A stretch of 43,869 nt of DNA from a virus: the UHGV virus genome UHGV-0210493; one strand, given 5' to 3'. The stretch's first letter is position 1; each line of letters begins with the position of its first letter. The notes beneath the pieces were generated by a model. The model was not told the DNA's origin. It saw only the letters and a list, made by a program, of their open reading frames with translations, and did no database searches. A program made the translations under genes and the position numbers. Positions 31,655-32,566 of this stretch are shown in pieces.

Positions 31655-31681
31655 AATAAAAAGCCACTCGCAATGAGTGAC
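31653..31681 (-). terminator. rho-independent terminator (minus strand) downstream of the tRNA, abutting the phosphoesterase start
   Basis: GTCACTC-ATTGC-GAGTGGC hairpin followed by TTTTTATTTT on the minus strand. Confidence 0.5.
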
Positions 31682-31765
31682 TTCGATATGTACGTCCCCG
31701 CTTGGGACACATTGCTAAGAGGTGTGCGAGGTTCTATCAGTTTTTTGGGATTACTGTGAACCCTA

Positions 31766-31838
31766 TTGACGTGACCGGACTCGAACCGGCGACCTCTTGG
31801 CTATTCACCAAACGCTCTGGCCGCTGAGCTACACGCCA
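31766..31838 (-). tRNA. tRNA with atypical anticodon loop (nominal anticodon AAU with G33; assignment uncertain)
   Basis: Cloverleaf by hand: acceptor TGGCGTG/CACGTCA, D-arm GCTC-AGCGGCCA-GAGC, T-arm GCCGG-TTCGAGT-CCGGT, anticodon stem TTTGG/CCAAG with loop TGAATAG; no encoded CCA. Confidence 0.7.
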
Positions 31839-31942
31839 CGACTTATAAAGAATACAATTAGGGTGGTACGGATTATCAGTCCGATCATATTACGTCCGAC
31901 TTAACTAGTATGCGGAATCAACCTAATGTTTCTAATGCGTTA

Positions 31943-32034
31943 TGTCACTGGCAAGGATTTGCACCTTGCATGGCACCTAAGTCCCTAAAATCGGAATGCC
32001 TTTCTGAAGCGTCTACCTATTCCGCCACAGTGAC
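31943..32034 (-). ncRNA. type-II (Leu-like) tRNA-like element / degenerate tRNA
   Basis: Perfect 7-bp acceptor GTCACTG/CAGTGAC; U8 G9; D-arm GCG-GAATAGGTAGA-CGC almost identical to bacterial tRNA-Leu; T-arm-like GCAAGG-TGCAAAT-CCTTGC; no canonical anticodon arm found. Confidence 0.4.
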
Positions 32035-32152
32035 TATCGCCCACAGAATAATTTTTACGTATCAAAAGGAGGTTGAATGCCGTTGTGCTTGTGGGCGATA
32101 TCTGATAATACTAATTTACCACGTTTTTAGACCTCGAAAGTTTGAAAATCGT

Positions 32153-32566
32153 TTAAATATCAAGGCTTCTATCCAATTCCTCAAAGAATTTGTCTCTTAA
32201 AGTGAATGCTTTATTCCTACCGCACTTGATAACTAGATTGTCAACTAAACCTTGCATCGTATACTGAGGAAATCGTTTGATATACAACTCTCGAATGATC
32301 GTCTCAGTGTCACTGCCGCACTCATCGAGAAGCTCTTGTACAATCTGCTTATTGCGTTTCAAACGCCGAATCTGTTTATCCGTCTCGATGGTCCACAATG
32401 TACCGAACATCAAATCGCTGTCGCTTCTTGTTCCCTTGATATCCCCATTAACATCCTCTTCTCGATACGGAACCCGAATCTCTTCTTCAAGCTTTCTGAC
32501 GTACTTATCCGTATCTCGGTAATCTTTCAACACTGCCTTGACTCGTTCAACACGCCATTTCTCCAA
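32153..32566 (-). CDS. ArpU-family late transcriptional regulator
   Basis: 137 aa; sigma-like regulator typical upstream of packaging genes in Firmicutes phages. Confidence 0.7.
   Translation of the reverse strand: MEKWRVERVKAVLKDYRDTDKYVRKLEEEIRVPYREEDVNGDIKGTRSDSDLMFGTLWTIETDKQIRRLKRNKQIVQELLDECGSDTETIIRELYIKRFPQYTMQGLVDNLVIKCGRNKAFTLRDKFFEELDRSLDI

Follow-up and report, generated by a model that had tools for sequence, protein, structure and literature searches.

A tRNA-like element without an anticodon arm, built on a tRNA-Leu-type core with a hypervariable arm, recurs in phage genomes

Modules that have the shape of a tRNA and serve outside translation are well known. In the MALAT1/mascRNA transcript and in the tRNA-miRNA (TMER) precursors of MHV68, cuts by RNase P and RNase Z at such modules define the ends of the adjoining non-coding RNAs (ncRNAs). 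The C4 RNA of P1 and P7 and the CI RNA of P4, found in phages of Proteobacteria, are cut from a longer transcript with the help of RNase P and act by antisense pairing to nearby cis targets, with variable loops that set their specificity. The processing of adjoining RNAs at tRNA-like modules has been stated as a general principle (PMC4810234). Several orphan ncRNAs of phages are also associated with tRNAs: GOLLD and ROOL are often located near tRNAs in prophages and are possibly co-transcribed with them (PMC5737381). In lysogens of phi10403S, RliG is expressed at a high level, in contrast to the silence of most phage genes (PMC7397523). Here we describe a tRNA-like element (TLE) in the Enterococcus phage genome UHGV-0210493, the whole 43,869-nt stretch of which is referred to below as the window, and compare it with related elements in other phages.

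The TLE is located on the minus strand in the gap between a gene for a late transcriptional activator and a tRNA gene. A preliminary description of this DNA, made from the letters alone, had read this segment as a type-II tRNA scaffold with a 7-bp acceptor stem followed by A73, U8 and G9, a Leu-type D-arm and a T-arm-like hairpin, and all of these features proved to be exact (Table 1). In the RNA the D-arm reads GCG-GAAUAGGUAGA-CGC, and the pairs that hold together the elbow of a tRNA, U8-A14, A15-U48, G18G19, G19-C56, U54-A58 and G53-C61, are present. The T-stem contains 6 bp, which yields a 13-bp acceptor/T stack, and the T-loop has a G at position 55. An anticodon arm, expected as a 5-bp stem and a 7-nt loop starting one nucleotide past the D-stem, is absent, in agreement with the preliminary description; this place is taken by an 8-nt linker and a 29-nt hairpin that abuts the T-arm.

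The clover-like shape is also the minimum-free-energy (MFE) structure of the element, with a value of -31.4 kcal/mol (z = -2.38) that was equalled by 3 of 200 shuffled sequences; taken over its full 314 nt, the gap shows no unusual degree of structure (z = -0.75). Standard annotation passes over the element. ARAGORN made no call on the TLE, and a scan of the window with Rfam 15, which the preliminary description had suggested for tRNA, tmRNA and tRNA-like families, found no family that matches it at the gathering threshold or at E <= 10; both programs called only the neighbouring tRNA. A covariance model derived from the family described below matched the window at the TLE and nowhere else, in two halves of 29.1 and 27.1 bits, with the next best match at 9.5 bits. 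A single covariance model of the core cannot span the insert and is split into halves, so that it is useful only for excluding a second copy in the window, of which it found none.

The family descends from class-II tRNA-Leu, and the preliminary description was right to propose such a descent. Its D-arm 20-mer is shared with genuine tRNA-Leu genes of phages, which made up 3 of 20 D-arm matches that were sampled; these genes are recognised by Rfam and have T-stems of 5 bp with loops of the UUCGA type. In phage 113, the tRNA-Leu(UAA) has AU and the T-stem, in this order, after its variable arm, and the closing stem of the TLE insert likewise ends before AU and the T-stem. The insert is therefore placed at the position of the variable arm, while a short linker replaces the anticodon arm. 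The string TTCAGAA, which directly follows the D-arm and had been taken for a remnant of the Leu anticodon loop, was not accepted as such because the linker at this place is not conserved across the family.

Copies of the element were found in the hundreds among IMG/VR contigs, GenBank phages and prophages using pattern scans. In BLAST searches against GenBank phages, Enterococcus phage EG-TP1 carried the TLE at 97.8% identity, and phiFL2A/B, IME197 and three lytic Schiekvirus phages of 150 kb shared its 3' 34 nt without a change; none of these sites has a feature in its record. Among the related loci that we numbered, L006 and L015 have an identical TLE. Acceptor, D-arm and T-arm are the same around unlike middles, with ~76 nt in phage 113, 37 nt in the window and none in the 52-nt mini versions of phiFL2A and IME197, which are reduced to the acceptor, a small D hairpin and the T-arm. 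Exact-pattern scans with half patterns specific to Enterococcus yielded 13 and 28 IMG/VR contigs; the T-arm-only and D-arm-only patterns each yielded at least 120 contigs. Among bacterial assemblies with one genome per species, the T-arm-only pattern was found in 51 contigs or loci; a 25-nt 3' pattern specific to the Enterococcus acceptor had no match among these species representatives. Copies were accepted by a script that required complementarity at 6 or more of the 7 acceptor positions. By this rule 137 of 147 loci passed, and most of the failing loci were either cut at contig ends or entirely without the 5' half.

The named hosts are Enterococcus, Listeria, Paenibacillus, Bacillus, Geobacillus, Anoxybacillus, Exiguobacterium, Leuconostoc, Lachnospiraceae and other Clostridia from the gut, and the Listeria phages include PSA, B025, B054, P70, LP-101 and vB_LmoS_188. 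Temperate and virulent phages of the same host both carry the element. It is also present on contigs from metagenome-assembled genomes labelled as Fusobacterium, Saccharibacteria, Gracilibacteria, Minisyncoccia, Bacteroidales and Proteobacteria, some of which may have been binned wrongly; these contigs are phage-like in gene context, with Erf, SSB, YopX, HNH and terS-like open reading frames (ORFs).

A few loci depart from the common architecture. Lone 3' halves, consisting of the T-arm and the 3' acceptor strand, were seen in L074, L083/L119, L116, L164 and L174 and are like the gene ends that are displaced by integration into tRNA genes. Three loci (L159, L189 and L192) have a second insertion in the D-loop, GGAAUAG[...]AAUAG-UAGACGC, with a short AAUAG repeat on its flanks; it looks like the entry of a small segment, mobile or produced by expansion, at the point between G18 and G19. 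Upstream of the mini TLE of phiFL2A (L002, 2190..2270) and of IME197 (L003) there is a 10-bp stem, GUCACUUGCA/UGCAAGUGAC, with acceptor-like ends (GUCACU...AGUGAC followed by A) that enclose a terminator-like hairpin of Shine-Dalgarno (SD) and anti-SD sequences. This stem may be a second, degenerate copy of the TLE. Strings resembling the CUGAUG and GAAA motifs of hammerhead ribozymes in the phiFL2A spacer had no Rfam support and were dropped.

The signature of the family starts with a 7-bp acceptor of free sequence, followed by U8 G9, a near-invariant Leu-type D-arm, GCGGAAUAGGUAGACGC, and the variable region. After this come A or C, U48 and the 6-bp T-stem, which usually closes a UGCAAAU loop with G55; UUCAAAU, UGCAGAU and UUCGAUU are minority loops. 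The nucleotides of the tertiary interactions in the elbow are invariant or nearly so across the family, and A15, G18, G19 and A20a are conserved. U48 was found in 55 of the 55 cores that were anchored on the D-arm and in all 78 anchored on the T-arm, where the position lies inside the search pattern. The discriminator is not conserved. Over 88 acceptor types it is A in 45, U in 28, G in 10 and C in 5, and Enterococcus copies that are otherwise nearly identical have either A or U. Only 1 of the 88 has an encoded CCA. Positions 3:70, which form a C-G pair in the window, are UA, CG or AU in the family.

To quantify the covariation, the cores were aligned after removal of the variable middle. For the 78 T-arm-anchored cores, 98.5% of the stem cells were paired, and double-sided changes were observed in 7 of 7 acceptor pairs and 2 of 3 D-stem pairs. 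The covariation was 0.503 as compared to 0.134 for shuffled data, with 0 of 500 shuffles reaching the observed value, and slid registers were 25-46% paired. The apparent invariance of the T-arm in this dataset was an artefact of using the T-arm as the search pattern, and was corrected by the D-arm-anchored scan. The 55 cores from that scan were 98.8% paired, with a covariation of 0.686 versus 0.155, and 5 of 6 T-stem pairs covaried, including the outermost sixth pair (GC 49, AU 3, CG 1). Of 106 unique elements that were folded, 83 had the full acceptor stem in their MFE structure and 97 had the T-arm.

Cells that deviate from Watson-Crick pairing were G.U in 26 cases and A.C in 7, and 171 of 184 copies were co-oriented with the flanking ORFs. 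The excess of G.U and the co-orientation therefore point to an RNA that is read from the TLE strand rather than a palindrome in the DNA. Chance is most strongly contradicted by conservation, since hundreds of phage loci share this fold and show compensatory changes in it. The preliminary description had left the choice between a decayed tRNA and a functional tRNA-like RNA co-transcribed with the downstream tRNA, and had named a lack of covariance in related phages as evidence against the latter. Covariance was present in the acceptor, D and T stems; the decayed tRNA is refuted by the conservation, while the functional RNA is supported by the covariation of the stems, the G.U excess, the orientation and the usual location of the element in tRNA/ncRNA arrays.

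The variable arm ranges from 0 to ~250 nt, and the 144 unique elements contain at least 92 arm classes that are distinct by BLAST. Acceptors are constant within a host genus, such as GUCACUG in phages of E. faecalis, AUACUCG in Listeria and GAUGUGG in six Paenibacillus species. One acceptor occurs with many arms in a genus and one arm occurs with different acceptors, which suggests that arms are exchanged through recombination in the conserved D and T segments. Compared to dinucleotide shuffles, the arms have on average the more stable folds (mean z = -0.66, p = 6e-9). A 150-nt arm class is common to a Listeria phage, a Paenibacillus prophage and a contig labelled Fusobacterium, with compensatory changes at 4 pairs of the closing stem and a conserved internal motif. 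The sole variant of the arm class in the window is that of EG-TP1, which changes a G-C pair to G.U. The absence of an arm in phiFL2A and IME197 shows that it is dispensable in these phages.

We also searched for partners of the arm. Complementarity between the arms and 2.5 kb of flanking sequence was not in excess of controls (mean longest match 8.36 versus 8.21 nt, p = 0.15). The best complement to the arm in the whole window, UAAAAUCGGAAUG, is a perfect match of 13 nt inside a 768-aa tail-fibre-like ORF; since 2.5% of shuffled arms do as well, it is probably due to chance. A possible pseudoknot between linker and arm, for which one Listeria class is suggestive by eye, had a weak excess of pairing (5.68 versus 5.46 bp, p = 0.01) and was not retained.

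Some arms show peculiarities of their own. Canonical T-arm-like hairpins of their own, for example ACGGUUCGAAUCCGU, are contained in the arms of L021/L026 and seven further loci (L036, L043, L063, L069, L092, L157 and L192), and the arm of L157 seems to hold a nested, degenerate tRNA-like fold. In the Listeria class, the loop of an inner arm hairpin occurs in either orientation between identical stems, as AAACGUAUGU or ACAUACGUUU (L045 versus L052/L123). This flip suggests that a near-palindromic hairpin may have been inverted at the level of the DNA.

Across the family, the copies are located in phage tRNA/ncRNA arrays at the junction of early and late genes. The nearest co-oriented upstream ORFs mostly code for late-gene activators, namely ArpU (TIGR01637), RinA (TIGR01636) and sigma-70 region 4 proteins, and the downstream ORFs include terS, HNH endonucleases and an exonuclease-like protein as in the window. 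Most sampled loci have tRNAs within a few hundred nucleotides, and in the lytic Schiekvirus phages the TLE is placed inside tRNA arrays. Other structured RNAs are close neighbours. Full-length ROOL (261-263 bits) ends 10-13 nt upstream of the TLE in L042 (667..1248), L078 (709..1287), L047 and L113, which are phage contigs of the Enterococcus type. In Listeria, the match to the Rfam rliG model abuts the TLE, and its last ~41-45 nt overlap the TLE acceptor and D-arm in two loci; an mcrA motif follows 90-150 nt downstream of the TLE. A Faecalibacterium contig (L150) has an abiF motif (41 bits) 13 nt upstream of the TLE and a tRNA just downstream, and in L218 a drum RNA is located 115 nt downstream. 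ROOL was also seen on the same fetched locus as the TLE in L013, L118 and L249.

A rearranged array was found in Enterococcus phage 113 (L004, 1244..2400). Here a tmRNA (Rfam, 127 bits) is followed by an oppositely oriented gene annotated as a group I intron endonuclease and then by a 35-nt duplicate of the tmRNA 3' end, consisting of a tmRNA-like T-arm and 3' end, that abuts the TLE. This arrangement looks like the insertion of a homing endonuclease at the 3' end of the tmRNA.

Table 1. Features of the TLE locus and other segments of UHGV-0210493 mentioned in the text (window positions; parts of the TLE are listed 5' to 3' on the minus strand).
Feature	Position	Strand	Evidence or remark
RinA-family late-gene transcriptional activator	32153..32566	-	NCBIfam TIGR01636 phage_rinA, 66.1 bits (cut-off 31.9); phrog_36 transcriptional regulator
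Promoter-like extended -10, TGGTAAATT	32113..32121	-	Read from the sequence; just upstream of the leader hairpin
Leader hairpin, 11-bp perfect inverted repeat closing a 44-nt loop	32035..32100 (arms 32100..32090 / 32045..32035)	-	Repeat search, 100% complementary
Loop of the leader hairpin	32046..32089	-	Contains CAACCUCCUUUUGA
TLE, 92 nt	31943..32034	-	Sequence and MFE fold
TLE, acceptor 5' strand GTCACTG	32034..32028	-	
TLE, U8 G9	32027..32026	-	
TLE, D-arm GCG-GAATAGGTAGA-CGC	32025..32009	-	
TLE, 8-nt linker UUCAGAAA	32008..32001	-	
TLE, 29-nt hairpin	32000..31972	-	At the variable-arm position
TLE, A47 U48	31971..31970	-	
TLE, 6-bp T-stem and UGCAAAU loop (GCAAGG-TGCAAAT-CCTTGC)	31969..31951	-	
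TLE, acceptor 3' strand CAGTGAC	31950..31944	-	
TLE, discriminator A	31943	-	
Spacer between TLE and tRNA, 104 nt	31839..31942	-	No Rfam match
AUUCCGC in the spacer	31918..31912	-	Repeat search; complementary to GCGGAAU of the D-arm (32019..32025)
tRNA-Ile(AAU), downstream, co-oriented with the TLE	31766..31838	-	ARAGORN; Rfam tRNA, 52.3 bits
ACCUCUUAGCAAU, 13 nt, just past the tRNA	31711..31723	-	85% complementary to the 3' anticodon-stem/variable region of the tRNA (31792..31804)
Intrinsic-terminator-like hairpin and U-run	31660..31684	-	Terminator scan; 10-pair stem, then TTATTTT
UAAAAUCGGAAUG, complement to the arm	11165..11177	-	Inside the tail-fibre-like ORF

In the window, all genes flanking the TLE are on the minus strand. 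The stop codon of rinA is 118 nt upstream of the element, and just before the leader hairpin there is a promoter-like box that would mark the start of a small-RNA transcription unit. A scan with the sigma-70 consensus did not report this box; boxes of the -10 type occur at the same position in relatives (TAAAAT and TATAAA), including a perfect TATAAT in L025. The inverted repeat of the leader hairpin, with arms TATCGCCCACA and TGTGGGCGATA, is exact as given in the preliminary description, with 44 nt between the arms, and its 3' arm directly abuts G1 of the TLE. Arms and loop are kept in at least 10 Enterococcus-phage loci (L006, L010, L014-16, L019, L021, L023, L025 and L026). The repeat is restricted to one Enterococcus-phage subgroup and is placed outside the core of the family. 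Its conserved loop has an anti-SD-like sequence that includes CCUCC, which may be the functional feature, on the sense strand. A 17-aa ORF with a strong SD and an ATG on the plus strand, antisense to the leader hairpin, was rejected as a gene because an 8-nt insertion in L006 and L010 breaks its frame.

The spacer that follows the TLE contains a complement to part of the D-arm, and the string AUUCCG is found in the variable arm as well; alternative pairings that unfold the D-arm are therefore possible. The downstream tRNA has a non-canonical anticodon loop, UGAAUAG, with G33 and the anticodon AAU. Relatives of this tRNA with a near-identical acceptor (UGGCGUG/CACGCCA) and T-arm have other anticodon loops (L002, 2651..2725; L003, 2652..2725; and five further loci, L005, L011, L017, L018 and L022). 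These are the loops of Lys-UUU, of Glu-UUC at a distance of a single base change, and of Arg-ACG, besides UUUUUUAA loops of 8 nt for which ARAGORN can make no assignment, and the whole looks like one phage tRNA scaffold that is undergoing anticodon switching. A weak match to the abiF motif (19 bits, E = 1.3) overlaps the 13-nt segment just past the tRNA that is complementary to it.

Between the tRNA and the next ORF there is a terminator-like hairpin, possibly the 3' end of a transcription unit of leader hairpin, TLE and tRNA; the same sequence follows the TLE region in L027. The genes beyond it are an exonuclease-like ORF and then terS, terL and portal. Taken together, the -10-like box and the terminator-like hairpin after the tRNA suggest a compact transcription unit consisting of promoter, hairpin, TLE, tRNA and terminator.

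We consider it about an even bet (probability near 0.5) that the TLE mimics a tRNA, is inert in translation, is excised by the tRNA-processing enzymes of the host and serves as a processing or scaffold module. The data above show its structure, conservation, strand, genomic context and descent; its transcription, processing and stability, and any role of the arm, we infer from the following considerations. A role in decoding is not expected because the element has no anticodon arm, a 13-bp stack, G55, a variable discriminator and an encoded CCA in 1 of 88 acceptor types, and because ARAGORN and Rfam do not call it as a tRNA. Recognition of the elbow and measuring along the T/acceptor stack are common to RNase P, RNase Z and the CCA-adding enzyme (PMC4810234). 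A role in processing is favoured because the elbow and this stack are the features that have been kept, and because the reduced copies retain the acceptor/T minihelix and a small D hairpin and many copies are located 0-13 nt from another structured RNA. The TLE would be transcribed together with its neighbours, which in the window are the leader hairpin upstream and the tRNA downstream and elsewhere are ROOL, rliG or an abiF motif upstream. Its 5' end would be cut by RNase P and its 3' end by RNase Z. As punctuation, the TLE would fix where the upstream RNA stops and where the RNA after it starts, and it would be released as a stable tRNA-shaped RNA that carries a lineage-specific arm as cargo, in the window phage the 29-nt hairpin.

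Several observations weigh against this processing role. Cleavage by RNase P and RNase Z is deduced from the shape of the element alone, and these considerations are complicated by the stack, which has 13 bp as compared to the 12 bp measured by RNase P and the CCA enzyme, and by the leader hairpin in the window, which reaches position -1 and leaves no single-stranded 5' leader for RNase P. Punctuation by itself gives no reason for the large arms of most copies, certain classes of which are conserved with compensatory changes, nor for the structure of the arms, which on average exceeds that of shuffles, nor for the strict keeping of G55 and the Leu-type D-loop; an ordinary tRNA could equally serve as punctuation. 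In phi10403S, deletion of the annotated rliG, which may or may not include the TLE, did not impair virion production (PMC7397523).

A broader proposal is put forward tentatively as possible. The acceptor, the Leu D-arm, the 6-bp T-stem and the T-loop with G55 may form a universal, translation-inert tRNA-Leu chassis in phages of Bacillota and beyond, into which interchangeable structured RNA domains are plugged. Maturation and stabilisation of the product would fall to RNase P, RNase Z and the CCA enzyme of the host, and activity would reside in the hypervariable arm, for example as a decoy against host defence or as a regulator specific to the phage. This arm would diversify under an arms race, with exchange through recombination inside the conserved arms. 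Large RNAs next to the chassis, such as ROOL and RliG, would be matured by it as well, and the engineered 'tRNA scaffold' would have in it a counterpart from nature.

The main rival of the processing role, and a less likely one, is that the excised tRNA-shaped RNA is itself the effector. The core would then serve for processing, stability and as an elbow handle, while the arm would provide specificity, either as a decoy or sponge for a host defence protein that binds tRNA or as an immunity-type regulator. The number of arm classes, the occurrence of one acceptor with many arms within a host genus, the conservation of some classes over distant hosts with compensatory changes and the better folding of arms than of shuffles all speak for such a role, and variable loops fulfil it in C4 and CI RNA. 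The presence of the TLE in both temperate and virulent phages of one host is likewise consistent with an effector. An immunity or anti-defence function would also suit the high expression of the adjacent RliG region in Listeria lysogens (PMC7397523). On the other side are the lack of excess complementarity to the flanks, the chance level of the best complement in the window, and the viability of phiFL2A and IME197 with arm-less copies; no partner protein or target was identified.

It is improbable that the TLE is a leucine-accepting mimic, to which CCA is added and which the host's leucyl-tRNA synthetase (LeuRS) charges or tightly binds, so that it titrates the enzyme or donates or sequesters leucine outside decoding. 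The copy in the window has most of the identity elements of bacterial LeuRS (A73, U8-A14, A15-U48, G18G19, A20a, G19-C56 and U54-A58), and a tRNA-Leu without an anticodon arm can be charged (PMC9976931). However, a change of A73 to C abolishes leucylation of a minimal tRNA-Leu and the G18:U55 pair matters for it (PMC9976931), whereas the discriminator is A in only about half of the acceptor types (45 of 88) and switches between A and U in near-identical copies, G55 precludes a G18:U55 pair in the window and in most relatives, and the 13-bp stack is non-canonical. Leucylation is thus possible for the copy in the window, as judged from its nucleotides, and unlikely as a function of the family because of the variable discriminator and G55.

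Still less probable is a role at the level of the DNA, as a late promoter or operator, a cos/pac packaging signal, a linker for recombination between early and late regions or the remnant of an integration site. The location between the late activator and the packaging genes, the proximity to the record ends of some phage genomes, the few loci with a 3' half only, which are like att-site remnants, and the apparent shuffling of arms between copies via recombination in the conserved D and T segments would fit such a role. These observations are outweighed by the covariation of the stems, the identity of the conserved positions with the nucleotides of tRNA tertiary interactions and the strand asymmetry of the wobble changes; moreover, copies occur in the tRNA arrays of virulent 150-kb phages, distant from the packaging genes, and the families of the adjoining activator and terminase vary between phages.

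We give very little credence to a decoding tRNA-Leu with a removable, intron-like insert. An arm of the L010 type starts like a Leu anticodon stem, in an element that is just at the Rfam tRNA threshold (29.8 versus 29 bits), and some inserts of 220-250 nt have the size of the group I introns in tRNA-Leu, but these inserts had no match to group I introns even at E <= 0.5, those of 0-39 nt are too short to self-splice, and neither the window copy nor most classes have an anticodon stem-loop. Removal of the insert would still leave the RNA without an anticodon arm. A decaying, functionless pseudogene of tRNA-Leu, as the absence of an anticodon arm and the failure of tRNA finders might suggest, is scarcely credible given hundreds of copies with the same core in phages of several phyla, compensatory substitutions in all three stems and invariant tertiary nucleotides.

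Mimicry of tRNA being well known, it is the architecture of the TLE, its breadth and its adjacency to ROOL and RliG that appear to be undescribed. Rfam 15 scans of the window and 59 related loci yielded no family for the element. The GenBank phage records that we checked have no RNA annotated at the TLE sites; most have no feature there and a few have an overlapping 'hypothetical protein' or 'gp' feature. We found no description in the open-access literature by topic or by the literal D-arm and T-arm sequences, and a prior description is possible. A large and widespread phage RNA family may thus have been overlooked by current annotation, tRNA finders and Rfam 15.

The element also provides a link to the orphan phage ncRNAs, that is ROOL, GOLLD and drum near tRNAs and RliG in lysogens, the biogenesis of which would become experimentally tractable if the TLE matures or anchors them. 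As a natural minimal tRNA, it indicates that the anticodon arm, U55, the 12-bp stack and a fixed discriminator can be stripped away while the elbow and the acceptor are kept, which is relevant to substrate discrimination by RNase P, RNase Z, the CCA enzyme, LeuRS and EF-Tu. The hypervariable arm, with its many classes in a small sample, could supply new functional RNA domains and mark phage-host specificity groups.

Class-II tRNA-Leu of bacteria or phages is among the known systems closest to the TLE. The two share the 7-bp acceptor, U8, the D-stem pairs G10-C25, C11-G24 and G12-C23, a long D-loop (A14 A15 ... G18 G19 U20 A20a), the pairs A15-U48, G19-C56, U54-A58 and G53-C61, and a hairpin at the variable-arm position that is followed by AU and the T-stem. 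They differ in that the TLE has a linker for the anticodon arm, 6 bp rather than 5 bp in the T-stem, mostly G55 instead of U55, no fixed A73 and a hypervariable arm. Like tmRNA (RF00023), the TLE has a 5' acceptor strand, a D region, a large insert on the side of the variable arm, a T-arm and a 3' acceptor strand and has no anticodon arm. Unlike tmRNA, it has a full D-stem, an insert of 37 nt in the window (8 + 29), no G3.U70 pair for alanine identity and no match to the Rfam tmRNA model; no tag reading frame or pseudoknots were evident, though no search was aimed at them.

Resemblance to the remaining systems is of a more general kind. ROOL, GOLLD, drum and the rliG, abiF and mcrA motifs occupy the same tRNA/ncRNA neighbourhoods of phages and prophages and are neighbours rather than homologues of the TLE: none of their Rfam models match the element itself, save for the ~41-nt spill-over of the rliG 3' end, and rliG (RF02415) has no match in the window. 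YrlA (RF02553) is also an ncRNA that mimics the acceptor/D/T elbow of a tRNA and is found in some phages; its own 5' and 3' ends form the stem at the anticodon-stem position, a topology unlike that of the TLE, and its Rfam model did not match the TLE, the sole weak match being elsewhere in L009 (27.6 bits, threshold 69). C4 and CI may be regarded as analogous in being small phage RNAs with tRNA-like ends and a conserved scaffold with variable loops, but the TLE is unrelated to them in sequence and fold and shows no excess of cis complementarity. MALAT1/mascRNA and the TMER precursors are eukaryotic and herpesviral, respectively, and have no sequence relation to the TLE, which adds a large arm and for which processing is suggested by analogy. 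In placement, however, the TLE is like these modules, with ROOL, rliG, an abiF motif or a leader hairpin located 0-13 nt upstream.

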